The position numbers and the translations under genes were made by a program. This document shows, one piece after another, positions 3,903 through 64,000 of a stretch of 64,000 nt of DNA; position 1 is the first letter of the stretch; every line of letters begins with the position of its first letter. The notes beneath the pieces are model-generated. The model did no database searches. It was given only the letters and a program-made list of their open reading frames with translations, and had not been told where the DNA came from. Source of the stretch: Escherichia phage KKP 3715; the sequence record OR067834.1; one strand, given 5' to 3'.

Positions 3903-4527
3903 ACAGAAACTTGCTGCAAAAGGTGGTGCAGTGGGAGGAGTTGTCGCTGCTATTCTGGGGGCAGTGTTCTATATGGAAGGGGGGTACGTAAACAATCCTC
4001 GTGACCCAGGTGGGGAAACTAATCATGGTATTACTCAATCAGTAGCTAAGTCTCACAAAGAAGTTCTGGCTACTGAGTATGGTTGGGATGGTTCCATGAA
4101 GGGTTTATCTAAAGAGATGGCTGCTGAGATATACATAGATGACTACGTACTTAAGCCTAACTTCGTAGCTTTCGCTGATATATCTCCTGCTGTAACACAC
4201 AAACTGGTTGATGCTGGTGTTAACACAGGTGTAACCAGACCAGCTAAGTGGTTGCAGCAATCTCTTAATGAAATGTCCCGTGATGGCAAAGACTACCCTA
4301 AAATACAAGTTGATGGTAAAGTCGGTGCAGGTACTGTTAATGCATATAAAGCATTACAGAAAAAACGAGGCAAAGTTGCAGCATGTCAGGTAATGATTAA
4401 GTTACTTGATGCTAAACAACTGAACCACTACACCTCATTGAACATGCCAGACTTTACGTATGGTTGGGTAGCTAACCGAATTGGTAATGTACCACTGGAG
4501 GCATGTAATGAAGATGCTAATCTCTAA
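3892..4527 (+). CDS. signal-anchor-release (SAR) endolysin, GH108-type N-acetylmuramidase with peptidoglycan-binding C-terminus
   Basis: Motif EGGYVNNPRDPGGETNHGIT matches the GH108 signature EGGY..DPGG.T..GIT; N-terminal hydrophobic Gly/Ala-rich stretch KGGAVGGVVAAILGAVF consistent with a SAR domain. Confidence 0.75.
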   Translation: MKAKQKLAAKGGAVGGVVAAILGAVFYMEGGYVNNPRDPGGETNHGITQSVAKSHKEVLATEYGWDGSMKGLSKEMAAEIYIDDYVLKPNFVAFADISPAVTHKLVDAGVNTGVTRPAKWLQQSLNEMSRDGKDYPKIQVDGKVGAGTVNAYKALQKKRGKVAACQVMIKLLDAKQLNHYTSLNMPDFTYGWVANRIGNVPLEACNEDANL

Positions 4528-5008
4528 AGGTTGGCCTTATCTTCTGGTGGTGGTCCTCGGGGCCACCATTTACTTTTGGGGCAATTCCAATGGGCAGTCT
4601 ACTGTTCAAAAGAGGTGGGATGCCCAAAAGGTTGAAGACCTGAAGGCAACACAAAAACTACAGGACAAATACAATGCTCTCCAAAGAAACCATAGTTATG
4701 AAGTCGGGTTACTTACTTCCCGGTTGCAGACGGCTGAGAGTAATTACGCAAGCGAGCTTGCTCGCGTTAGCAGTGATTACGACAGCCGGATGCAACAGTC
4801 TGAAAGACGAGCATCGGTATATAAACGTCAAGCCGAAACCGGAACCCTTGAGTGCAGAAGTCTTGCAAGCCATGCAGCCAGACTCGACAACAGTCTTGAA
4901 GAAGGCAGACGTTTGGTTGAAGAACTCCGGGCAACTGTTAGACTCCGTGACAACCAACTAATTGAGTTGGGTAAGCAAATTCAGGCTGACCGTAAACTTT
5001 TTGAATAG
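4508..5008 (+). CDS. i-spanin (Rz-like)
   Basis: N-terminal TMD ([16 protein letters not shown]) then a long charged helical periplasmic domain; overlaps the endolysin stop; contains an embedded +1-frame lipoprotein ORF. Confidence 0.6.
4698..4961 (+). CDS. o-spanin (Rz1-like lipoprotein) embedded in the i-spanin gene
   Basis: MKSGYLLPG...LAVITTAGC: signal peptide ending in a lipobox-like TAGC, then a short Pro-containing periplasmic tail; lies entirely inside 4508-5008 in another frame. Confidence 0.55.
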   Translation: MKSGYLLPGCRRLRVITQASLLALAVITTAGCNSLKDEHRYINVKPKPEPLSAEVLQAMQPDSTTVLKKADVWLKNSGQLLDSVTTN

Positions 5009-54325: not shown

Positions 54326-54586
54326 TTACAGACCATGAGGTCGGCATAGACTACCTGAACCAAAGGAACGGTGTCCAAGTCGGCCCAGGATTAGATTGCT
54401 TACTTCAGCAGCAGCACGGCTGAATGCTTTAAAGTCAAAGACTACGACACCAAATAGCGGGGCTGCGATAGCAGCTACCATGACCGGTGTCAGGTCATTT
54501 AGTGACATACCCAAGATTACGTGGGCAGCATAAGCAATAAGGCCCATAACAGCACTACAACCGAATCCAATAGCAATTTTACGCAT
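54326..54586 (-). CDS. small membrane protein (hypothetical)
   Basis: 86 aa, two hydrophobic helices. Confidence 0.35.
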   Translation of the reverse strand: MRKIAIGFGCSAVMGLIAYAAHVILGMSLNDLTPVMVAAIAAPLFGVVVFDFKAFSRAAAEVSNLILGRLGHRSFGSGSLCRPHGL

Positions 54587-54643
54587 AGTTACCTTCTTAG
54601 TTAGTAGATTGATACATATTCATATAACAGACAAACAATAGTC

Positions 54644-54672
54644 AAAAAAAGACCCCCCTTCAATAGGGAGGT
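54644..54672 (-). terminator. Rho-independent terminator after the decoration-protein gene
   Basis: On the - strand: GACCTCCC-TATTGAA-GGGGGGTC followed by TTTTTTT. Confidence 0.6.
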
Positions 54673-54723
54673 CAATCTTGAGGGTTTCCTTTCGGGGTTT
54701 ATAACCCCAAATAAGGGATACCC

Positions 54724-55557
54724 TTACTCTGCAACAGTAACAGCGATGGTTACGTCTACAGTACCATTGGTAACTACTACAGAAGTAGCATCACCAGCAG
54801 CCACTGGTTTAACTGTCAGTACGTTACCAGCAATGGTAGCTGTAGCACGGGCGGAATCCGGAGCAGTCTTGATAGATAAAGTACCAACAGACGCTCCAAC
54901 AGGCATAGCAGTAATGGTTACAGTCTTACCATCTGTGGTATCGTCAGCAACGGACAGAGCCAGTGAAGCAGGAGTAGCTACCAGTGAGCTTGCTTCGTAG
55001 TAGCCTACAGCCAGCAGTGAGGTATCTTCTACCGTGGTTCCATTAGCATCAGTAACAATCACTTTATAAGTACCAGCAGAAGCAGCTGTTACGTTACTAA
55101 GGGTCAGTGTTGCAGTAGCAGCAGATGCGTTATCACCAGAATCAATATCAGCGAATACTGCACCAGCAGTGTTAGCTTTGTATTGCCACTTATAAGTAAA
55201 TGGTGCTTTACCGCCTGCTACATCAATGTGCCAGTTAATATCTTCACCTTCGATAGTGGAGATTACACGAGGCAGTTTGGTAGCAATAGTTAGTCGTGGA
55301 GTAGCTTGCATGTCGATAGTGACCGACTGCATATCCACGATGTTGTCAGGCCAGAAGCCTTCTTCAGCAGGGTTTTTAGCAGAGCGTTTATACAACAGGT
55401 CACGAACACCGTGAAAGATAACTAAGCTATCGGGGTAAGTGGCATCTGGATGTACAAAAGTACCTACTTCCACAGAACCACCTGGAACACTACCACCTGA
55501 ATCAAGCACGGTAGCAACGTTGGTAGTTTTATTAAACGCAATCTTTAAGGTTGGCAT
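54724..55557 (-). CDS. Ig-like capsid decoration protein (N4 gp17-like, tentative)
   Basis: 277 aa, Thr/Ala/Val/Ser-rich beta-type composition with repeated xTVxV patterns; followed by a strong terminator; position just downstream of the split RNAP genes matches N4 gene order as recalled. Confidence 0.4.
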   Translation of the reverse strand: MPTLKIAFNKTTNVATVLDSGGSVPGGSVEVGTFVHPDATYPDSLVIFHGVRDLLYKRSAKNPAEEGFWPDNIVDMQSVTIDMQATPRLTIATKLPRVISTIEGEDINWHIDVAGGKAPFTYKWQYKANTAGAVFADIDSGDNASAATATLTLSNVTAASAGTYKVIVTDANGTTVEDTSLLAVGYYEASSLVATPASLALSVADDTTDGKTVTITAMPVGASVGTLSIKTAPDSARATATIAGNVLTVKPVAAGDATSVVVTNGTVDVTIAVTVAE

Positions 55558-55603
55558 GCATGTATCCTCTTGAGTAAATATGCCTAATCATTATGAAGGC
55601 TGA

Positions 55604-55633
55604 TAAAAAAGAAAGCCACCCTCAAGGGTGGCT
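55604..55633 (-). terminator. Rho-independent terminator
   Basis: On the - strand: AGCCACCC-TTGA-GGGTGGCT followed by TTCTTTTTTATC. Confidence 0.55.
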
Positions 55634-55814
55634 AGTTGTTGATGTGGTAAATCCAGTAAGCTATCCAACCGGCTAATACAAAACATCCGGCAGAGTACGC
55701 TCCATAGTAGCAATAAGCAAACTTGGATTTGTGGGCGTTAACTATAGTGAGTATCACAATAGCAGATAAAACTATCAGTACGGTTTTAGTAATAACATCA
55801 TAGATGTCTGGCAT
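55632..55814 (-). CDS. small membrane protein (hypothetical)
   Basis: Start moved to the ATG at 55814 with GGAGGT RBS (track start lies inside the upstream terminator); two hydrophobic helices. Confidence 0.4.
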   Translation of the reverse strand: MPDIYDVITKTVLIVLSAIVILTIVNAHKSKFAYCYYGAYSAGCFVLAGWIAYWIYHINN

Positions 55815-55831
55815 GTTGACTACCTCCAAGC

Positions 55832-55868
55832 AAAAAATAAAAAGCCCCATACCCGAAGGTATGAGGCC
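55832..55868 (-). terminator. Rho-independent terminator after RNAP subunit gene
   Basis: On the - strand: GCCTCATACC-TTCG-GGTATGGGGC followed by TTTTTATTTTTTG. Confidence 0.55.
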
Positions 55869-55874
55869 AGTTTA

Positions 55875-57092
55875 TTAACTTAATGCATAATCCGTTTCAA
55901 GAATGTCCTGCCAGAGGCTGTCATCCAGCTTACCAGCAGAAAACTCTTGTCCCAGTACCTGAGACAGAATGAAGCCCAGCAAATCACTCTTAGCAATGTC
56001 AGACAGAATCTGATTGTACTGACGACGCAGGTCATTGCCATAGTTAGGGTGACAACGGAAGCAGTCATGTACGGTCATTACAGGGAATGGTTTCTTAGGC
56101 ATGGTATTGATCATAGCCATGATTACATCTGTATCAACCAATGCAATCGTTTCTGAGTCCAGATAGTCAAAGATACGGGTAGACAGGAATCCCGACTTCT
56201 CATAGCTAGCCCATAGTGTGTTAACCATTTCATGGTTAGCATCAGGAACAACTATGTATTCACTGGTTCCTTCACAGAGGGACTTAATATAGTTCACCTG
56301 GTTCATGTTGAAGTTACAACGACGCAGCATCTCACGTACCACCATCCCATCAATAGAGTGGGTGATGTTAGCAGAGAGCATACGAGTCTTCTCTTCAGTA
56401 CCCTGAACCATACGAGTGATGTCGAATGGTTTACCTAAGAAGTTAACGGTCTGTACTTCTGGAACCATGACCTTAATGACAGCATGGTAGTTGTCAGGCA
56501 ATACCCATACGTAACGGTTAGCATCCGGGTTACCACATTGCAGTAAGAACTTGTTCAGTGCCCAAGGTCCACTAGCAACAGTTTCCATTACATTCTCAAA
56601 AGTCTTGAGACGGATACCTTCACCGAATACTTCTTTAGGCTTAGCTTCTGAACCGTAGAACGCAGTCATAACTGCCTGCTTGGTGTCACTACGTTTAATA
56701 CGAGATGCTTCACCAAGGATGTCCAGCATCTTGTGATAGATAACTGTATAAGCATCACGACGTAATGGCTTACCATTCTCTCCCATGTAGTTAACTACGT
56801 TACACAGTTCAGCAGCAGAACGGTCACCAGTCAGGCAAGCCAGTAACTGTAAGCCAGATGATGTAGCATCCAGAGCTACGGCATAGCCAATAGGCTTACC
56901 AGCTTTCATGTCTTTCCATGCGTTTATACCTGCATAGAACAGTGCAGATTCTTCAGCTTCATCTACCAGATTGAGCAGGTTAGCTTCGTTCTCATCGAAC
57001 CAGCTAATACGTTCATCCCATGTCTTCTTGTCTAAGCCATAGTTGTTAGCGATATCTACTTTCAGGTATTCACGGGCAGTTAACAGTTGCAT
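55875..57092 (-). CDS. T7-like single-subunit RNA polymerase, C-terminal catalytic part (N4 RNAP II large subunit-like)
   Basis: 405 aa; motif A-like DATSSGLQLLA (T7 DGSCSGIQH), motif B-like RSDTKQAVMTAFYGS (T7 RSVTKRSVMTLAYGS), motif C-like VHDCF (T7 HDSF). Confidence 0.65.
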   Translation of the reverse strand: MQLLTAREYLKVDIANNYGLDKKTWDERISWFDENEANLLNLVDEAEESALFYAGINAWKDMKAGKPIGYAVALDATSSGLQLLACLTGDRSAAELCNVVNYMGENGKPLRRDAYTVIYHKMLDILGEASRIKRSDTKQAVMTAFYGSEAKPKEVFGEGIRLKTFENVMETVASGPWALNKFLLQCGNPDANRYVWVLPDNYHAVIKVMVPEVQTVNFLGKPFDITRMVQGTEEKTRMLSANITHSIDGMVVREMLRRCNFNMNQVNYIKSLCEGTSEYIVVPDANHEMVNTLWASYEKSGFLSTRIFDYLDSETIALVDTDVIMAMINTMPKKPFPVMTVHDCFRCHPNYGNDLRRQYNQILSDIAKSDLLGFILSQVLGQEFSAGKLDDSLWQDILETDYALS

Positions 57093-57148
57093 TTTATATT
57101 CCTTTTGCTTCTTGGCTCCCCACTATGGAGAGCCTGCTTATTGGATGA

Positions 57149-57391
57149 TTAACCAGCATTAAAAGATGACAATACTATTCCTGGCTCTACGCCTTCGGTG
57201 GCAATACCAAGGTACTCAACATGTACTTTATCTGGGGAAGAACACCAAGCTGAGTATGTACTCCATTCCCCATCTGGGCTAATAAGACGAGCCTCTTCAG
57301 CAGTTTTAGCTGCTACCACAACAGAATCGAATGTATCCCACCCCTTACGCTCATTCTGGCTAATAAGCCATAGCTTTAATATCTCACTCAT
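57149..57391 (-). CDS. hypothetical protein between the two RNAP genes
   Basis: 80 aa ORF overlapping the upstream gene by 8 nt. Confidence 0.35.
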   Translation of the reverse strand: MSEILKLWLISQNERKGWDTFDSVVVAAKTAEEARLISPDGEWSTYSAWCSSPDKVHVEYLGIATEGVEPGIVLSSFNAG

Positions 57392-58202
57392 CGTTTACTA
57401 ACTCCTTATCAGCGAACTCCAGTACAGCTTTGTTGTAGCTGGTTCCCTGATAGTTGATGTGATAGCCCTGAGCGTAAGTACGCCCACGTTTGTCATATTT
57501 GTGACCCAGTGAGAAGTTATTACCTTCCTGAGTCACTAACTCCATTACTTCCTTAGCAGTACGGCTGTACTTCTCAAAGGCTTTAACACGTTTCTCATAT
57601 TCCTGACGGGTTTCACCCTCTTTGGGTTTATCCATGTTAGGACGAGAGTCTTTTACATAGTTAGCAACGTCCCAGTTAATACAGAGACGTTGGTTGTTCA
57701 TACGGTTGATGTGGTCAAGGCAGACATCCATCTCATGATGGTTCTTCTTGAGGATAATGCTTCCTTTGGTCTGGTAGTATCCAGTATCCCTGTTAGTTCT
57801 GACAGGATTAGGAGCACTTACGATAGGTAATGGATACTGGAATGCTTCCAGTTCCATCTGAACATCTTCACTAATCTCATAGATAACACCGAATTTGTCG
57901 ATGGTAGGGTCATAGTTGAAGCAGTCATTCTCTGCCATCTTATACAGACAGTCGGCGATGTACTGAGCATCATCTGAATGGCTCATGAGAGAGCCAATCA
58001 TAGTCTGGATGTCAGCACGTTTATGTAGGGCAATCTGCACCATTGCATCAATGAGCAGCTTATAATCAATTTCTAAATAGGCAGCGAATGCCTTAAAGTC
58101 AATTTCTTTGGAGTCCTCGAATTCCTTCCTCATGCGAGGCAGTAATTGATTTTTATTAAATAGGACTTCAAGCTGCTTCTGATGTTCAATAGATGAGTAC
58201 AT
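57384..58202 (-). CDS. T7-like RNA polymerase, N-terminal part (N4 RNAP II small subunit-like)
   Basis: 272 aa; HKYDKRGRTYAQGYHINYQGTSYNKA resembles the T7 RNAP segment around DWRGRVYA; separate ORF from the catalytic part. Confidence 0.5.
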   Translation of the reverse strand: MYSSIEHQKQLEVLFNKNQLLPRMRKEFEDSKEIDFKAFAAYLEIDYKLLIDAMVQIALHKRADIQTMIGSLMSHSDDAQYIADCLYKMAENDCFNYDPTIDKFGVIYEISEDVQMELEAFQYPLPIVSAPNPVRTNRDTGYYQTKGSIILKKNHHEMDVCLDHINRMNNQRLCINWDVANYVKDSRPNMDKPKEGETRQEYEKRVKAFEKYSRTAKEVMELVTQEGNNFSLGHKYDKRGRTYAQGYHINYQGTSYNKAVLEFADKELVNDE

Positions 58203-58250
58203 CGCATATTCTCCAATTAGTTAATTACCACAAGGTGCGGAGCACCCTTC

Positions 58251-58598
58251 TTATGACCAGTAGTTGTAAGCATCACCTAAGTGCTTTCTCCACTGTTCAG
58301 GGAGCAGTACATTACCGGTGACATTAACGAATTGATGTGGAAGTAGGTCTTCCGAGATTGCTACTTTGAAATCCCATTGTGGTTTCATAGAAGCATAGGC
58401 AATAAATCCATTAATAAACTTCTGTGTATATTCCTGGCTCAATAATCCATCTGGTCCTTTAGTAGGAATAGCAAAGCTATTGCCATATTGACCATAAGCC
58501 ATACCCCAGCGAGCACCGTGTTTCTTATAAGCTAACTTAGCAGCTCCCTTAGTGTGCTGACCTAAGGTGTTAGTAGTGAATATGAAGATTTCTTTCAT
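58251..58598 (-). CDS. hypothetical early protein
   Basis: 115 aa; Gly-rich motif TKGAAKLAYKKHGARWGMAYGQYGNSFAIPTKG; function not recognised. Confidence 0.4.
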   Translation of the reverse strand: MKEIFIFTTNTLGQHTKGAAKLAYKKHGARWGMAYGQYGNSFAIPTKGPDGLLSQEYTQKFINGFIAYASMKPQWDFKVAISEDLLPHQFVNVTGNVLLPEQWRKHLGDAYNYWS

Positions 58599-58601
58599 GG
58601 G

Positions 58602-58991
58602 CTATCCTTTTGGATTTTCTACAAAATATTTATACATAGCTTTTACTAGCTTCTCTTTAATAACCTCACCATGACATGGTTTCGGATAACAGAAGCACTG
58701 TAAGGCTAGTCCTTTCTCGTCAATGGCTTTATTACCCAGACGATTAAGTTCATCCAGTACAACTGGATTTCCTTTATCAATCTGTTCTTGCAGCCAGACC
58801 TTATACTTAGCAATTACTTGCTCTCTGGTTCCATGTTTACCAATGACGAATGGATTGCCTAATGGTGAGCCACGTCCAATATACTCACCGGATTTACCGT
58901 GATGTTTATTAACAATGATAATTGGACGTGCGGATACACCCAGCAAAGCATTGGTGTTATCACCTAATGCGTTAGTGATTATCTCTTTCAT
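58602..58991 (-). CDS. DUF4326-like protein (tentative)
   Basis: 129 aa; YIGRGSPLGNPF and CFCYPKPCHGEVI match the motif pattern recalled for the DUF4326 family. Confidence 0.35.
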   Translation of the reverse strand: MKEIITNALGDNTNALLGVSARPIIIVNKHHGKSGEYIGRGSPLGNPFVIGKHGTREQVIAKYKVWLQEQIDKGNPVVLDELNRLGNKAIDEKGLALQCFCYPKPCHGEVIKEKLVKAMYKYFVENPKG

Positions 58992-58992
58992 G

Positions 58993-59217
58993 TTATTTAC
59001 CTTGAATTACTAGGTGAGATTCAAATAATTCAACTTTTGCTGAACTTACTACAGGTATTATTTCATCCGTCTTACAAATACGCATAGCAGAGCATCCAAT
59101 TTTCATCCATAAGTATGTGTTAGAGTCCTCGTTCAGGAAACGGAATACATCACCGTTTGACAGGTCTTGAAATTGGAGCACAGGCAACGGTTTCTTATTA
59201 ATTACTTTAACTTTCAT
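58993..59217 (-). CDS. hypothetical early protein
   Basis: Start moved to the ATG at 59217 with AAGGA RBS. Confidence 0.3.
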   Translation of the reverse strand: MKVKVINKKPLPVLQFQDLSNGDVFRFLNEDSNTYLWMKIGCSAMRICKTDEIIPVVSSAKVELFESHLVIQGK

Positions 59218-59221
59218 TTGA

Positions 59222-59542
59222 TTAATCCTTTGGTTTAAGTACCTGGAAGGCATATACAGGACGTTTACTACGCCATTGGTTCATAGCCAGTTCACTGGCA
59301 GGAGAGCCATCATGTAAGTCATATATGAATGTAATTATATACTCTGGTTCCTCTGGGAAGTTCTCTGTAGAGAATGGTAGACCAGCTTCCTTTAATACAG
59401 GAACCAGTGGTGATTCTGGTTCACAGTAAATAGTGAACTCTTCGTTGAATGCTTTACTGGTCTGAGATACATAATCAATATTACGCATCATCTTATCTAC
59501 ATCTTTAAATGTATTATCATGTACTACTACGATGTTATTCAC
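59222..59542 (-). CDS. hypothetical early protein
   Basis: 106 aa ORF. Confidence 0.35.
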   Translation of the reverse strand: MNNIVVVHDNTFKDVDKMMRNIDYVSQTSKAFNEEFTIYCEPESPLVPVLKEAGLPFSTENFPEEPEYIITFIYDLHDGSPASELAMNQWRSKRPVYAFQVLKPKD

Positions 59543-59796
59543 TCTACTTTCTCCAGGGTTAGGTATACTGTATTTGGTTGAGGTACATAATCACAAAAAC
59601 CAATTTCCTCTTGTCTACCGCTAGACTTCCAAATACAGTTTTCGGTTAGCTTAGGCTTTCTACTAAATCCAATTAGTGATGCATTCTTACTCTTCTGAGG
59701 ACGAGGTAATAAGGCTACATATTTAACCCATAATGGGACTTCAATAGTTTGTCCCATATAGTTAAATGATTTAGTTACAGGGAATGTAATAATCAC
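59539..59796 (-). CDS. hypothetical early protein
   Basis: 85 aa ORF coupled to neighbours. Confidence 0.3.
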   Translation of the reverse strand: MIITFPVTKSFNYMGQTIEVPLWVKYVALLPRPQKSKNASLIGFSRKPKLTENCIWKSSGRQEEIGFCDYVPQPNTVYLTLEKVE

Positions 59797-60156
59797 TTAG
59801 TACCTCACCACTATTACTTTCTTATTATTGAACCGTGTCATAATATCAATCATGTGCTTGGTTCCTTTGGAATTACCATCCCAGAATGCTACAAGAACAT
59901 CTGCGAATTTAGCCATTTCAATATTACGTACATAACCTGCACGCTTACCTAGTCTGTCCCAGTCAGCATGGAACTCATGTATTACCATTCCTGCTTCATT
60001 CCAGAGATTATATGCTGTAAGGTCTGCTCCTCTAGCCATACCACATACAAGTTCAGGTGAATCAGTTATTTCACCTGATTCTACTAGCTTCTGTAATTCA
60101 GCAATCATACGATTGGTGTCAGTGAAGTCACGTCCACCAGCTACAATCAGTTTCAT
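59797..60156 (-). CDS. SLOG/DUF2493-like Rossmann-fold protein (tentative)
   Basis: 119 aa; KLIVAGGRDF...CGMARGADL...AGYVRNIEM follows the pattern recalled for the YspA/DprA-like SLOG family. Confidence 0.35.
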   Translation of the reverse strand: MKLIVAGGRDFTDTNRMIAELQKLVESGEITDSPELVCGMARGADLTAYNLWNEAGMVIHEFHADWDRLGKRAGYVRNIEMAKFADVLVAFWDGNSKGTKHMIDIMTRFNNKKVIVVRY

Positions 60157-60374
60157 TTCTGATACCCCTGTATATAGTTAATACGGCGAATACGCTGAGT
60201 AGATGCCTTAACAGCCATCTGTTGATTCTCTTCTTTGTGCTGATTATTTAACAACTTATCCCATTCTTCCTGGTTCCGTTGTTTCTGCAATATACGTCTA
60301 CAACGTTTATGATTGGCAACTCCACGTCCTTTCTTACAGACTGGGCATATACCATAATCGTTCGTGTACATCAT
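60153..60374 (-). CDS. small basic protein with CxxC (zinc-ribbon-like)
   Basis: 73 aa; GICPVCKKGRG then a Lys/Arg/Gln-rich tail. Confidence 0.3.
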   Translation of the reverse strand: MMYTNDYGICPVCKKGRGVANHKRCRRILQKQRNQEEWDKLLNNQHKEENQQMAVKASTQRIRRINYIQGYQK

Positions 60375-60685
60375 TGGCTTAAAGCCTCCATTAATATTTT
60401 ACGAATAACGTTAACATCAGATTCAGTACCAATTAAACCAACAGGTTTCTTAGTACTATCTGTGACAAAGGATGCAATCCTCTCCATCTCTGCTGTAATT
60501 AATTTGTCACCACTAATAAGACGATTACGAAGGTAAGCCTCATAAGCTACCTCTATATCTTCTACAGTGGTTCTTTCATTACGAGTGAATGGATTACTTA
60601 ATGGGAAGGGTAGATGTACCCGTATATTCCTGTCAGCTACTTTAGCTAAGTGAGGAAGAATACATACTATTTCATTTAGACTCAT
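60371..60685 (-). CDS. hypothetical early protein
   Basis: 104 aa ORF. Confidence 0.35.
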   Translation of the reverse strand: MSLNEIVCILPHLAKVADRNIRVHLPFPLSNPFTRNERTTVEDIEVAYEAYLRNRLISGDKLITAEMERIASFVTDSTKKPVGLIGTESDVNVIRKILMEALSQ

Positions 60686-60893
60686 CGACTAACCTTAATA
60701 CGTGTGACAGTTTCATTAACATAACTGCATCGGATAACTTGCTAGCATCACTATGGATGATAGCTCCATGATTACCTAGTGAATGATATTCTTCACTGGT
60801 TTCTTTAGCGTAATTACTAATAGCCTTAGTTACTTCATACGCACCATACATACGACACATATACTGTAATTGCTCAATGTGTTCTTGTTCCAT
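60672..60893 (-). CDS. hypothetical early protein
   Basis: 73 aa ORF. Confidence 0.3.
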   Translation of the reverse strand: MEQEHIEQLQYMCRMYGAYEVTKAISNYAKETSEEYHSLGNHGAIIHSDASKLSDAVMLMKLSHVLRLVDESK

Positions 60894-60931
60894 TATCCAC
60901 TCCTATTTAAATACATATCTAACTATTCAAG

Positions 60932-60966
60932 AATAAAAAATAGGAGCCTCCTATTGGAGGACTCCT
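60932..60966 (-). terminator. Rho-independent terminator (early region)
   Basis: On the - strand: AGGAGTCCTCC-AAT-AGGAGGCTCCT followed by TTTTTTATTC. Confidence 0.55.
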
Positions 60967-61024
60967 AGTTCTACTAATGCACCGTAGGTTAACAGTGCAC
61001 ACATAATTAATGTTATAGGCCAAT

Positions 61025-61237
61025 TCATATAAATGGATATAGGTAGTTGACTACACAATAGTATATGAACCATAAGCTATAGCCTATGCTCAATCCCTTA
61101 GTTAATGCAGTAACATAACCAAATATTGCAAAACCTCTGGCATCATTATTAGTAACAAAGGTTTTAGTGATATTACCGGCTACATTAGTGAGCCATACGT
61201 TCAGGTACAGTAATACTATAAAGATTATAAAATACAT
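61025..61237 (-). CDS. small membrane protein (hypothetical)
   Basis: 70 aa, two hydrophobic helices. Confidence 0.35.
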   Translation of the reverse strand: MYFIIFIVLLYLNVWLTNVAGNITKTFVTNNDARGFAIFGYVTALTKGLSIGYSLWFIYYCVVNYLYPFI

Positions 61238-61239
61238 GG

Positions 61240-61371
61240 TTAGTTTCCTAAGATTGGATGATTGAAGGTAACAATCTTACGTACTGGTTCAGATGTCTGT
61301 TGCTTAGCAGCTAGACGCTCTTTCATCTTTTGTACGTCAGCTTTGGTTCCCATGATTAATGACTTACGCAT
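61240..61371 (-). CDS. unannotated 43-codon ORF (basic small protein), not in the supplied ORF track
   Basis: ATG at 61371 with GGAG about 9 nt upstream; MRKSLIMGTKADVQKMKERLAAKQQTSEPVRKIVTFNHPILGN; stop lies 2 nt before the next gene's ATG; fills an otherwise empty ~300-nt gap. Confidence 0.3.
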   Translation of the reverse strand: MRKSLIMGTKADVQKMKERLAAKQQTSEPVRKIVTFNHPILGN

Positions 61372-61533
61372 GTTTAGTACTCCACATAAAGTTAAAAGGT
61401 TTATTGTTACGTACAATTCTTACAGCCATTTGATAACCATTGAGTTGCACTACACCATAGTGTCTTTTCTGTACTCCAGTGTGATATCTACGGAAGATAC
61501 ATTCTTCAATGGCATCCTCAATGTTAGTGAATA

Positions 61534-61752
61534 TCACTGGTTCCTCTTTGTGAACTCTTCTGCTTCTTTAGCCCAGAGTTGCTTACGAACTTCTTTAGCT
61601 ACTATGGAAGCAAACAGACACTTAACGAATACAACTGGTAACTTACAGATAAGTACCAGCTTAGTTCTTACCCACTTGGCTCCATTGAGAATGTAACCAC
61701 GCAGGCGATACAGTACATAGCAGAGTATTACAAACGCAATGAAGTCCAACAT
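61534..61752 (-). CDS. small membrane protein (hypothetical)
   Basis: 72 aa, N-terminal hydrophobic helix. Confidence 0.35.
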   Translation of the reverse strand: MLDFIAFVILCYVLYRLRGYILNGAKWVRTKLVLICKLPVVFVKCLFASIVAKEVRKQLWAKEAEEFTKRNQ

Positions 61753-61756
61753 AGTC

Positions 61757-62071
61757 TTATCCTTTCAGGCAGTTAGTATGTGCATAGTTTAAGTTATCCA
61801 AGGTAAATTCTTTACCTAGTTCTATTCTCTTACCACACTCATAGCATTTTTGTGATAGGTAATGTTTTTGCACATTGTGCAGTTTACGGATTTGTTTACG
61901 AGTAGGCTTAGCTACAAAGAAGTAGTCATAAGTACGTTCCCTGTTATCAGCTACAGATACCTGCCAACGAGCATCTAACGACATACCACAGGTGAAACCT
62001 CTAGATGCCATATGCCTTTCTAATGTTTCTACTAATTTCTGAGAGTTATAACGGTTACATAGTACACGCAT
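61757..62071 (-). CDS. early protein, paralog family member 1 (KPTxKQIR motif; C-terminal CxxC...C)
   Basis: 104 aa; AAGGAG RBS; shares W...Y.F.AKPTRKQIRKL with two other early ORFs; ends with CYECGKRIE...NC. Confidence 0.45.
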   Translation of the reverse strand: MRVLCNRYNSQKLVETLERHMASRGFTCGMSLDARWQVSVADNRERTYDYFFVAKPTRKQIRKLHNVQKHYLSQKCYECGKRIELGKEFTLDNLNYAHTNCLKG

Positions 62072-62176
62072 CTTGATTACTCCTTACTCTAAGTTATCTG
62101 CTTCTGTTTACATTTAAGTTTTAGTGACTCTTCGTCGAAAAGCCCCTAAAAGTTAAACTTAGTTTATCGCTGAGTT

Positions 62177-62208
62177 AAAAATAAAAGGACTACCCGAAGG
62201 TAGTCCCT
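62177..62208 (-). terminator. Rho-independent terminator (early region)
   Basis: On the - strand: perfect 8-bp GGACTACC-TTCG-GGTAGTCC followed by TTTTATTTTT. Confidence 0.6.
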
Positions 62209-62215
62209 TAGTTGA

Positions 62216-62512
62216 TTAGAAAGTCAGTTTACGAGCATATTTATTCTCGTCTGCTGGGATGTCAGCAGCCTCTGCTTTCACACGACGAAGTTGAACTTGC
62301 AGGTTAATGATACCTTCTTCACCTGGTTCCAGGTTCTGAGCATATTCGATTAACTGTTCCAGCAAATCGTTCTGTGCACAACGCATAGCACGGAAGTCAG
62401 CATTGCTGCTGTTAGTAGGCAGTGGTTCCTGAGTATCCAGTGGAATACCAGTAGGCAGAGAGATGAATTTCTCATCCTCAGAGCCTTCATTAGCAATATA
62501 ACCAATGTTCAA
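62216..62512 (-). CDS. hypothetical acidic early protein (TTG start in track)
   Basis: 98 aa, strongly acidic; no ATG near the 5' end, only a TTG with weak RBS, so the start is uncertain. Confidence 0.3.
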
Positions 62513-62534
62513 CCAGAACTGAGCCTTAGGCTTA

Positions 62535-62600
62535 GCAGTTTTTAGTTTCAGTGGTAGCAGCAGCGTTAGATTGACCGAAAGTGAATTTTTGAATAGACAT
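62535..62600 (-). CDS. unannotated 22-codon ORF with strong RBS
   Basis: ATG at 62600 preceded by GGAGAG; [22 protein letters not shown]; first ORF downstream of the 62711-62725 hairpin. Confidence 0.25.
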
Positions 62601-62710
62601 TTTGTACTCTCCAGATAAATGATTGTTTGATTTATGGGTTTGTCCGTCGGTGACTAAACCCAAGAAAAGACTTAAGATTTCAATGATTAGTGGATGCATT
62701 TACATCCTTT

Positions 62711-62725
62711 AGACGCGGAGCGTCT
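62711..62725 (-). promoter_or_regulatory. candidate virion-RNAP hairpin promoter (AGACGC-GGA-GCGTCT)
   Basis: 6-bp stem, 3-nt GGA loop, no U-tract; same core as the hairpins at 63045 and 63907; upstream of leftward early ORFs. Confidence 0.45.
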
Positions 62726-62731
62726 TGATAT

Positions 62732-63010
62732 TTACTTGAAGAAATGTGGATAGTCTTCTATGAATTGAGCTAAGTCATGTACATGCTCAATGACAGCTTT
62801 ACGCTTGCACTGGCGTACTTGTTTAGCCGTAGGCTTAGATGTGAAAGCATACTGATGTACAGATGCAGACATAGGGTTATCATCAACTGATATCTCTACA
62901 TCTACGGCCCAGTGTGCAGGATTAGAAGTGTACATCATTTGAGATTTAGTAAATGTAGTTGAATGATTAAATGGTGGTACATAGTGGATTGAGGTATGAA
63001 TAGTACGCAT
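62732..63010 (-). CDS. early protein, paralog family member 2 (KPTxKQVR motif)
   Basis: 92 aa; GGAGAT RBS; HWAVDV...YAFTSKPTAKQVRQ aligns with the other two paralogs. Confidence 0.45.
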   Translation of the reverse strand: MRTIHTSIHYVPPFNHSTTFTKSQMMYTSNPAHWAVDVEISVDDNPMSASVHQYAFTSKPTAKQVRQCKRKAVIEHVHDLAQFIEDYPHFFK

Positions 63011-63044
63011 AGCTTAATCTCCAATAGTTGAATGATATCCAATA

Positions 63045-63057
63045 GACGCGGAGCGTC
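63045..63057 (-). promoter_or_regulatory. candidate virion-RNAP hairpin promoter (GACGC-GGA-GCGTC)
   Basis: 5-bp stem, GGA loop, about 35 nt upstream of the ORF starting at 63010. Confidence 0.45.
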
Positions 63058-63091
63058 GTTACCTTACAGGCAACGCCTGCGGTCTGGTTTT

Positions 63092-63454
63092 TTAAGCATA
63101 CTGTGCAGTTTCTTTACGGAATGCACGTCGTAGTTTACGGATTTGTTTCTTTGTAGGTTTAGCATGGAATGTATGACATTCAATAATACGTAGTCTGTAC
63201 TTGATGACACCCTCTTCAGTGAACCATAGTTTCCAGCAAGCAAGGCTATGACCACCAAAGGTTATTCCTGGTTTTACGTAGTAAACATCAGTATTGAATC
63301 GCATTTTTACTTCTCCGTTAGCAGGATGGATTTTACTTTTTTGACCATTACCATAGTCAGTATTTACCAGAGGTTTTCCCATATGTACGGAAACCATAAC
63401 AACAAGTGCAAGGGCAATAACAATTGTGATTAGTGCATCTATTACTTTGCTCAT
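63092..63454 (-). CDS. early protein, paralog family member 3 (N-terminal membrane anchor, KPTKKQIRKL motif)
   Basis: Start moved to the ATG at 63454 (track start is TTG); N-terminal hydrophobic helix IDALITIVIALALVVMV; C-terminal CWKLW...HTFHAKPTKKQIRKL. Confidence 0.4.
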   Translation of the reverse strand: MSKVIDALITIVIALALVVMVSVHMGKPLVNTDYGNGQKSKIHPANGEVKMRFNTDVYYVKPGITFGGHSLACWKLWFTEEGVIKYRLRIIECHTFHAKPTKKQIRKLRRAFRKETAQYA

Positions 63455-63504
63455 AGTAGGATTCTCTTTTAACTTTTTATGCAAACTAGACTATCTATCT
63501 AATG

Positions 63505-63533
63505 TTTATAAAAGGAGACTCCGAAGAGCCTCC
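63505..63533 (-). terminator. Rho-independent terminator (early region)
   Basis: On the - strand: AGGAGGCTC-TTCG-GAGTCTCCT (one mismatch) followed by TTTTATAAAC. Confidence 0.45.
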
Positions 63534-63540
63534 TATTGAT

Positions 63541-63864
63541 TTAGTCTTTAGTCAGGATGTCAATTACTTTTGAATATTCTGCATTATAGATACGAGCGTT
63601 CTCTGAATCTTTGCAGAATTCTTCAATACTTTTCTTACGCATAGTCTCGTTCATAGCTGTTTCTTCAGCTAATTTGTTTACGAATGTATGCATTTCTAAT
63701 TTAGTACGAATGGCTTGTTTCTCTGCCATAGTAGATACATATGAGTTAAGCATACCTACTGCTTTAGTAGCTGTGCCAAATGTATCTGCAACAGTAGTAG
63801 CAGCAGAGTTAACAGTACCCAGTAAAGTTCCTGCGGTCATACGTACAGTAGCGGTAGTAGTCAT
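63541..63864 (-). CDS. hypothetical early protein
   Basis: 107 aa; first ORF downstream of the hairpin at 63907-63921. Confidence 0.4.
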   Translation of the reverse strand: MTTTATVRMTAGTLLGTVNSAATTVADTFGTATKAVGMLNSYVSTMAEKQAIRTKLEMHTFVNKLAEETAMNETMRKKSIEEFCKDSENARIYNAEYSKVIDILTKD

Positions 63865-63906
63865 GATGATAGCTCCAATAGTTGATGATAGGACGACATG
63901 TCCATA

Positions 63907-63921
63907 ACATGCGGAGCATGT
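63907..63921 (-). promoter_or_regulatory. candidate virion-RNAP hairpin promoter (ACATGC-GGA-GCATGT)
   Basis: 6-bp stem, GGA loop, about 45 nt upstream of the ORF starting at 63864. Confidence 0.4.
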
Positions 63922-64000
63922 GTAACGTGTAAGGTGGGGTAGGGTAGTGGCTACAGGGTCAACATACCGGGGGGGATGGTTGAGTGTAAGGGTGTAGCCC

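Follow-up and report, generated by a model that had tools for sequence, protein, structure and literature searches.

AdfN (T4 30.3), an orphan NADAR antitoxin against DarTG1, is a proven phage counter-defence protein (PMC11825919), AdfM (PhiKZ gp104) is a DarG2-like macrodomain that removes the ADP-ribose added by DarT2 from DNA (PMC13309987), and AdfB provides a precedent for a non-enzymatic antitoxin mimic. An association of SLOG, Macro, NADAR and DUF4326 domains in ADP-ribose (ADPr) processing has been predicted in DNA viruses by Iyer, Burroughs, Anand, de Souza and Aravind (Viruses 2022, PMC9503650), and fusions of DUF4326 to replication and restriction-modification (R-M) components have been described (Iyer et al. 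2021). For the SLOG class, deletion of ORF83 lowered the infectivity of the Seuratvirus PhiDruSM1 on an AVAST type III host (knock-out library preprint, 10.1101/2024.04.14.589459). In the EVADES study (10.1101/2025.06.06.658234), ORF83 is given a LOG/DprA-like fold that has a predicted AMP site (R89, N90, T112, D114) and lacks the dimerisation and RecA-binding residues of DprA; homologs from amoeba viruses are reported as fusions to DUF4326, and AMP phosphoribohydrolase chemistry is predicted for ORF83-type SLOG proteins. Here, three small genes of Escherichia phage KKP 3715 (OR067834.1), encoding proteins of 115, 129 and 119 amino acids (aa) and lying at positions 58251-60156 of the 64,000-nucleotide stretch that was analysed (the window), are compared with these systems.

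All three open reading frames (ORFs) are found on the − strand at exactly the coordinates given in the first-pass annotation, and they are real genes under purifying selection that are conserved in many phages. Sequence comparison leads us to lean, by a modest preference, towards the macro-like (115 aa), DUF4326 (129 aa) and SLOG (119 aa) proteins being early ADP-ribose/nucleotide-processing counter-defence proteins. They would be stand-alone versions of phage domains belonging to one functional network, and the task of the trio would be to process those products of host immunity that derive from ADP-ribose or nucleotides. For the macro-like protein this would mean binding ADP-ribose adducts or taking them off, in the way that AdfM and DarG2 work on DNA. 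A ligand of the adenine-nucleotide type would be bound or cleaved by the SLOG protein, blunting Avs3-like or NAD-derived signalling defences, and the substrate of DUF4326 would be the ribose-phosphate product or a related nucleic-acid end. Among related proteins, AdfM (macro, anti-DarT2), AdfN (NADAR, anti-DarT1) and ORF83 (SLOG, anti-Avs3, from the preprint) are experimental precedents for this reading. The counter-defence role raised in the first-pass annotation is plausible, with indirect support in the homology to ORF83 and to AdfM and in the fusions described below.

Family memberships and conserved motifs

The 115-aa protein was singled out in the first-pass annotation for a glycine-rich motif that looked conserved and could not be placed. 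The motif is conserved and can now be placed as probably macro-like, of the TARG1/DarG kind. The protein matches NCBIfam NF049995, "A1S_2505 family phage non-structural protein" (E 2.4e-24, 85.7 bits against a cut-off of 45), and phrog_2072 (E 3.5e-33), and an exhaustive HMMER search recovers 1,608 cluster representatives of this A1S_2505-type family at E <=1e-3, with the consensus IFVFGSN..G.HG.GAA..A....GA..G.G.G..G.SYAIPTK ... VT.IGCGLAG....IAP.F. The AlphaFold2 (AF2) model of the protein is confident (predicted local distance difference test, pLDDT, 97; predicted template modelling score, pTM, 0.89), and its best Protein Data Bank (PDB) neighbours in Foldseek are mostly macro domains, including CHIKV nsP3, DarG, TARG1 and Poa1p, with OSH55 designs, which cluster with macro domains, also among the top matches; these matches have probabilities of 0.85-0.98, TM scores of 0.48-0.64 and E values of 0.03-0.6. 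In the viral structure library BFVD, the protein's own family ranks first, including domains within crAss-like phage proteins that exceed 1,000 aa in length, and is followed by alphavirus and phage macro domains. Alignment of a 50-sequence family profile with AdfM by hhalign gives a probability of 77% (E 2e-5, 97 columns) and that of an 11-sequence profile 56%, the E values of the two profiles spanning 1e-4 to 2e-5, and three motifs pair in order: N10 with the catalytic Asn23, AIPTK with FPTK, and GCGLAG with GCANGG. Taken together, sequence and model suggest that the A1S_2505 family is probably a remote, minimal member of the TARG1/DarG macro class or a near neighbour to it. Some GenBank labels of relatives, such as "ADP-ribosylglycohydrolase" and "O-acetyl-ADP-ribose deacetylase 1", are similar to this placement.

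Within N4 and the genus Gamaleyavirus, the macro-like gene occurs as two strongly diverged alleles, a long one with the segment [IV]GCGLAG[YI] and a short one without it (alleles located at 58251-58598 of the window, 3933-4313 of locus L083 and 4148-4528 of locus L086). The long allele is represented by N4 gp14 and PhAPEC5 gp14, both of which keep all three macro motifs; the 115-aa protein carries the short allele and is 45% identical to N4 gp14. It has the Asn/Gly-rich motif of loop 1 and the lysine of the PTK motif (N10, G13, G18, K47). The loop-less allele is the sole feature of this locus unusual enough to suggest a new variant.

The resemblance of the 119-aa protein to SLOG/DUF2493 proteins, proposed from the sequence alone, holds above the curated threshold: the protein matches Pfam PF10686 YAcAr (SLOG) with E 1.8e-9 and 37.7 bits (cut-off 28.2) and phrog_289 with E 2.3e-30, and PF10686 is carried by 120 of its 120 listed homologs. 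We take PF10686 YAcAr to be the SLOG family formerly named DUF2493. Invariant in the family alignment are the AGGRDF loop, CGMA.GAD, the pair R77-N78 and FWDG.S.GT.H, and the window protein itself has R77, N78, the likewise invariant T99 and the Gly-rich loop. Seurat gp80, with the motif PGGAGTMD, has R89, N90, T112 and D114, the residues listed for ORF83 in EVADES, and on the strength of this identical numbering is evidently the ortholog of PhiDruSM1 ORF83. The window SLOG family aligns with Seurat gp80 by hhalign at a probability of 97.4% (E 9e-12, 107 columns); the SLOG family profile found nothing among PDB sequences, and direct phmmer searches of those sequences with each of the three window proteins gave nothing meaningful.

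Relatives of the 119-aa protein are annotated "DNA processing protein DprA" in many GenBank records, and the SLOG superfamily includes DprA as well as YAcAr, which raises the alternative that the protein is a DprA-like mediator of recombination that binds single-stranded DNA (ssDNA) and has nothing to do with its neighbours. This is very improbable given that Pfam DNA_processg_A (DprA/Smf) has no match to the protein at E up to 1 where the YAcAr threshold is passed instead, that the 119-aa chain is a single domain without the extra domains of DprA, and that the residues for DprA dimerisation and RecA binding are missing from ORF83 according to EVADES. The GenBank labels of SLOG relatives are themselves inconsistent and include "GTP-binding domain", "DprA", "chromosome segregation protein" and "ssDNA binding protein".

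The 129-aa protein belongs to DUF4326, as the first reading of the sequence had proposed: it matches Pfam PF14216 with E 2.6e-22 and 79.7 bits (cut-off 25), residues 27-113 spanning profile positions 4-82 of 82, and phrog_464 with E 1.7e-39. Both characteristic motifs, R...P-x-G-N-P and C-x-C-x4-C-H, are present, and the two segments quoted for the family, YIGRGSPLGNPF and CFCYPKPCHGEV, hold the invariant or near-invariant R40, P43, G45, N46, P47, C99, C101, C106 and H107. In the DUF4326 alignment, for which multi-domain proteins were trimmed to their domains, R40, P43 and N46 are invariant and C99, C101, C106 and H107 occur in at least 90% of the aligned sequences. The AF2 model has pLDDT above 90 for residues 30-120 and low values for the first 20 or so residues. 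DUF4326 is present in 1,443 phage records, and the window protein is 95% identical to N4 gp12 by BLASTP and 94% in global alignment (L086 3605-3973). GenBank labels of DUF4326 relatives are inconsistent and partly misleading ("ribonucleotide reductase NrdA-like", "DNA repair protein"). In one T4-like phage the DUF4326 match carries an annotation of similarity to T4 nrdA.1, the likely origin of the "NrdA-like" labels, and in two other T4-like records the match overlaps nrdB/nrdF annotations.

A second, diverged DUF4326 copy of 104 aa lies just outside the interval and went unmentioned in the first-pass annotation, as did the orthology to N4 gp12 and gp14 and the fusions described below. It matches phrog_464 (E 5.2e-15) and Pfam DUF4326 only below threshold (0.033), retains the R...P.SNPF segment and has lost the entire Cys/His motif. 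It is 73% identical to N4 gp9 and 91-99% conserved in four Gamaleyavirus relatives. A literature search found no published function for N4 gp9, gp12 or gp14; one paper naming "gp14/gp12" alongside N4 concerns T7 and Sf6 proteins.

Fusions among the families and the weighing of functions

The three families are joined to one another in other proteins. Of the macro-like family, 54 multi-domain members were scanned, and the partners that recur in them are DUF4326 (4), YAcAr-SLOG (4), DprA-like domains (3) and NADAR (1). One 323-aa chain (P0378) carries DUF4326, the macro-like domain and SLOG together, with the same three PHROGs as the window proteins; another (P0350) has DUF4326 and the macro-like domain followed by a C-terminal region without a called domain. 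The order varies, being macro-like then DUF4326 in P0291, macro-like then SLOG in P0369 and P0278, and SLOG then macro-like in P0275. The gene for the triple fusion lies among small ORFs on a 3.6-kb metagenomic contig (L088 875-1846). The length of the neighbouring gene (269 aa) had pointed to an N4-like phage as the source of this contig, but that gene is not an N4-type RNA polymerase (RNAP) and has no PHROG match.

The macro-like domain is also fused to EF-Tu domains, BspA-type leucine-rich repeats, RCC1 repeats, RNase H/RVT_3, WYL_2 and sigma-70 region 4 (P0342, P0250, P0367 and others), and it is found inside crAss-like phage proteins longer than 1,000 aa that bear the labels DNA helicase or ART-PolyVal (A0A7M1RUN7, A0A7M1RZQ7). 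Some of these fusions may be artefacts of assembly or gene calling.

Neighbourhoods were sampled at 80 diverse IMG/VR viral loci, using an alignment that selects only canonical macro-like members containing loop 2. A SLOG or DUF4326 gene lies within about 3 kb of the macro-like gene in 8 of the 80 loci, SLOG in five (four of them adjacent or fused) and DUF4326 in three. The linkage of macro-like, SLOG and DUF4326 domains is real but facultative.

Within the genus, the SLOG gene behaves as a cassette that is precisely inserted or deleted between orf85 and orf73, start and stop overlapping by 4 nucleotides (nt). It is absent from PhAPEC5 and Bas96, where the flanking genes are 96-100% identical to those of the window, was not found in the first 12 kb of N4, and is present in pSb-1 and 24-32N at only 67-71% identity, the best relative being in Shigella phage Moonfish (90%). 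The presence or absence of this cassette, together with the two diverged macro-like alleles, is typical of arms-race genes.

Several results argue against a counter-defence role built on ADP-ribose and nucleotide processing, the first being that neighbourhood linkage reaches only about 10% of the sampled loci. For the SLOG protein, the LOG motif PGGxGTxxE is not preserved: the window sequence is WDGNSKGTKH where ORF83 and LOG proteins have PGGxGTxx[DE], the threonine being retained and the acidic residue replaced by an invariant H101. For the 115-aa protein, there is no Pfam match, Macro included, and the 54 multi-domain family members scanned likewise contain no Pfam Macro match; the macro relationship is not significant database-wide (Foldseek E >=0.03), and hhalign of the family against Escherichia coli YmdB (MacroD type) gives a probability of 0.1%. 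A narrow family profile gave sub-threshold PDB matches to TARG1 and to SCO6735, a Streptomyces coelicolor macrodomain that has a literal RIGCGLAG in common with the family (E 0.26-0.5), but a broader macro-like profile (A2) returned only noise against the PDB; these matches are not counted as evidence because they were lost with the broader profile and because YmdB did not align.

The binding site of the window's macro-like copy raises a further difficulty. Loop 2 of macro domains contacts the diphosphate and the distal ribose of ADP-ribose, and its Gly-rich motif (GCGL.G or G[IV][YF]G) is lost from the 115-aa protein through an 8-residue deletion of [IV]GCGLAG[YI]. At the lysine position of the PTK motif, the short-allele clade has K, R or Q, with R or Q in several close relatives. 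Given the deletion and the variable lysine, canonical DarG-type catalysis by the short allele is doubtful.

These same features speak for an alternative in which the short macro-like allele, the Cys-less gp9 and possibly gp12, through its N-terminal peptide, would be non-enzymatic early host-takeover proteins that bind or inhibit host proteins on old enzyme scaffolds. The loop-2 motif is missing from 63 of 156 family members (about 40%), the gp9 paralog has lost C-x-C...C-H, conservation between N4 and the window phage extends to the first 20 residues of gp12 despite their low pLDDT, and AdfB shows that an antitoxin mimic need not be an enzyme. We nevertheless consider this quite unlikely, since gp12 retains every conserved Cys, His, Arg and Asn of DUF4326, the SLOG protein retains R77, N78, T99 and its Gly-rich loop, and the gp14 proteins of N4 and PhAPEC5 retain all three macro motifs. 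The N-terminal tail itself, LGDNTNAL[LF]GVSARP (window 58932-58991), lies outside the Pfam domain and has mean pLDDT values of 39 for residues 1-10 and 50 for residues 11-20; it may be a linear binding motif.

For DUF4326, structure gives little purchase. Foldseek of the AF2 model against the PDB has a best E of 1.3 with TM below 0.25, the top 50 matches include neither a rhodanese nor a phosphatase, and the family profile finds nothing among PDB sequences. The fold search does not reproduce the view of Iyer et al. (2022, PMC9503650) that DUF4326 is part of the rhodanese-phosphatase superfamily. The strand, Cys-loop and helix layout of the model is compatible with a very remote relationship of that kind. 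Of the two outcomes of structure prediction, which the first-pass annotation had proposed as a check, the one for the 115-aa protein leads to macro domains, none at E <1e-3, and the one for DUF4326 leads to no known fold; both of its family assignments pass the curated Pfam thresholds, so that the outcome it had named as refuting, a lack of support from profile searches, did not occur.

DUF4326 is also far more conserved than an arms-race gene would be expected to be. Between N4 and the window phage, gp12 differs by 38 synonymous and 7 amino-acid-changing codons over 122 aligned codons, whereas the RNAPII subunits are 66-69% identical, against 94% for gp12, with codon differences near 1:1. The pattern indicates strong purifying selection rather than recent transfer, gp12 is the most constrained early protein, and its extreme conservation is easier to reconcile with a core function or an invariant target than with an arms race. 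A core role in nucleotide or DNA metabolism, in which DUF4326 and perhaps a LOG-like phosphoribohydrolase SLOG protein serve nucleotide pools or DNA-end processing in every infection, is to be weighed. It agrees with this constraint, with the occurrence of gp12 in N4 and in all Gamaleyavirus relatives examined, with the nrdA.1-like and nrdB/nrdF annotations in T4-like phages, with the chemistry predicted in EVADES and with the fusions to replication and R-M components. We hold it to be unlikely because the SLOG gene is dispensable, being missing from PhAPEC5, Bas96 and the searched part of N4, because it is with macro-like and NADAR domains, which are ADP-ribose erasers, that fusions recur, and because ORF83 is non-essential, with a loss phenotype specific to defence.

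Returning to counter-defence by ADP-ribose and nucleotide processing, a more specific version, which we put forward only tentatively, is that gp14, gp12 and, where present, the SLOG protein would act in successive steps to erase ADP-ribose adducts or signals. DUF4326 would then be a Cys/His enzyme with a fold not in the PDB that probably acts on an invariant host-made molecule, as suggested by a constraint tighter than that on the phage RNA polymerase, and the short macro allele and the Cys-less gp9 would be catalytically dead, repurposed binders.

Gene order and transcription context

The window comes from an N4-like coliphage of the genus Gamaleyavirus, and the three genes belong to a compact series of small − strand ORFs (58251-60685) upstream of the RNAPII genes (Table 1). 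Matches to the region 57000-61000 come from 61 phage records, every one of them an Escherichia, Shigella, Klebsiella or Gamaleyavirus genome; identity is 84-96% but coverage only 63-88%, which marks the region as mosaic. PADLOC gives zero matches, which also counts against a counter-defence role.

Table 1. Genes and terminator-like hairpins of the early region (window positions)
Feature	Position	Strand	Profile or structure
Terminator-like hairpin past the RNAPII large-subunit gene, end of unit	55843..55868	−	11-bp stem, then T-run
N4-type RNAPII large-subunit gene	55875-57092	−	
N4-type RNAPII small subunit (gp15 homolog), directly downstream of the 115-aa gene	57384..58202	−	phrog_2166 (4e-117)
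115-aa macro-like protein (N4 gp14 ortholog, short allele)	58251..58598	−	A1S_2505_Nterm, phrog_2072
129-aa DUF4326 protein (N4 gp12 ortholog)	58602..58991	−	Pfam PF14216, phrog_464
86-aa ORF, function unassigned; among four relatives only in phage 24-32N	58993..59253	−	phrog_10911
106-aa ORF (N4 gp11 homolog, 71% identical)	59222..59542	−	phrog_7827
85-aa ORF, function unassigned	59539..59796	−	phrog_1972
119-aa YAcAr-type SLOG protein, accessory cassette	59797..60156	−	Pfam PF10686, phrog_289
73-aa Cys-rich ORF, 4-nt overlap with SLOG gene start	60153..60374	−	phrog_6887
104-aa diverged DUF4326 paralog without C-x-C...C-H (N4 gp9 ortholog)	60371..60685	−	phrog_464
Terminator-like hairpin upstream of the block, unit boundary	62184..62209	−	11-bp stem, then T-run

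In N4, the virion RNA polymerase (vRNAP) transcribes the early genes gp1, gp2, gp15 and gp16 (PMC13434306). The equivalents of gp2 and gp15 lie to either side of the block of the window, which has the same orientation as in N4, is syntenic with N4 gp9-gp14 upstream of the vRNAP-transcribed gp15/gp16, and falls within one hairpin-bounded unit. Placement in an early region, as claimed in the first-pass annotation, is sound on these grounds, and the synteny suggests that the three genes would be transcribed by the vRNAP and made in the first minutes of infection.

Over 54500-64000 of the window, terminator-like hairpins are strongly enriched (23 against 5.2 ± 1.9 in shuffles) and sigma-70-like promoters are depleted (14 against 27.1 ± 5.5), which fits transcription by phage RNA polymerases and not by the host enzyme. 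The G+C content is 0.38-0.40 at 58001-64000 and 0.42-0.47 over most of the remaining window. The interval between the two RNAPII subunit genes is variable among relatives, holding an HNH endonuclease in Bas96 (L084 1914-2495), an "endonuclease VII" in pSb-1 (L085 2650-3264), where the large-subunit gene is annotated in two pieces, and an 80-aa ORF (phrog_5444, 57149-57391) in the window. In 24-32N, the homolog of the 106-aa ORF is labelled "antirepressor" and that of the 86-aa ORF "endonuclease".

Relation to described systems

All three families are already catalogued, and their association is already published by the Aravind group, who had proposed on comparative-genomic grounds that such domains are expressed early and act against host immunity based on NAD+ or ADPr. 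New here are the proposed grouping of the A1S_2505 family with the macro domains of DarG, TARG1 and AdfM, the recognition of N4 gp9, gp12 and gp14 as counterparts of the window genes, the finding that the SLOG protein is homologous to ORF83, the chain in which all three domains are fused, and the constraint on gp12. These provide functional hypotheses for early genes that have long gone without annotation in N4, a model phage, and in its many therapeutic relatives, and likewise for a mobile SLOG cassette, and they flag DUF4326 as an unusually constrained family with no solved structural relative. Should the counter-defence role be true, the genes would help to predict the host range of N4-like phages on strains with DarTG, Avs or NAD-signalling defences.

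With AdfN the locus shares the concept of a phage-borne orphan ADP-ribosylglycohydrolase, NADAR being a fusion partner of the macro-like family; the fold differs, and no NADAR gene is seen among the window ORFs scanned. The likeness to AdfM, DarG and TARG1, drawn from sequence and model, lies in the motif order N-x2-G-x-x-G-x-G-x-A-K, [FI]PTK and G-C-x-x-G-G, the last in long alleles such as N4 gp14. The family has its own GA..G.G.G..G.S insert, and the window protein is shorter than AdfM (115 aa and about 160 aa), has nothing of the third motif and belongs to a clade in which the lysine is variable. ORF83 and Seurat gp80 are of the same SLOG family as the 119-aa protein and share with it the GGRDF loop, the R-N pair and the threonine of the predicted AMP site, whereas the window protein shows about 36% identity, has WDGxSKGTxH in place of PGGAGTMD and His in place of Asp114, and comes from another phage family.

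The closest relationship is to N4, with direct orthologs of gp12 (95%), gp9 (73%) and gp14 (45%) in the same order upstream of the RNAPII genes gp15/gp16, the differences being the SLOG gene, which the first 12 kb of N4 do not contain, and the VGCGLAG loop, which N4 gp14 keeps and the window protein has lost. Relative to the network of Iyer et al. (2022), the domains are separate genes in the window and the "Macro" member is a divergent one of A1S_2505 type, but the domain families, the fusion logic and the early-gene placement are the same.

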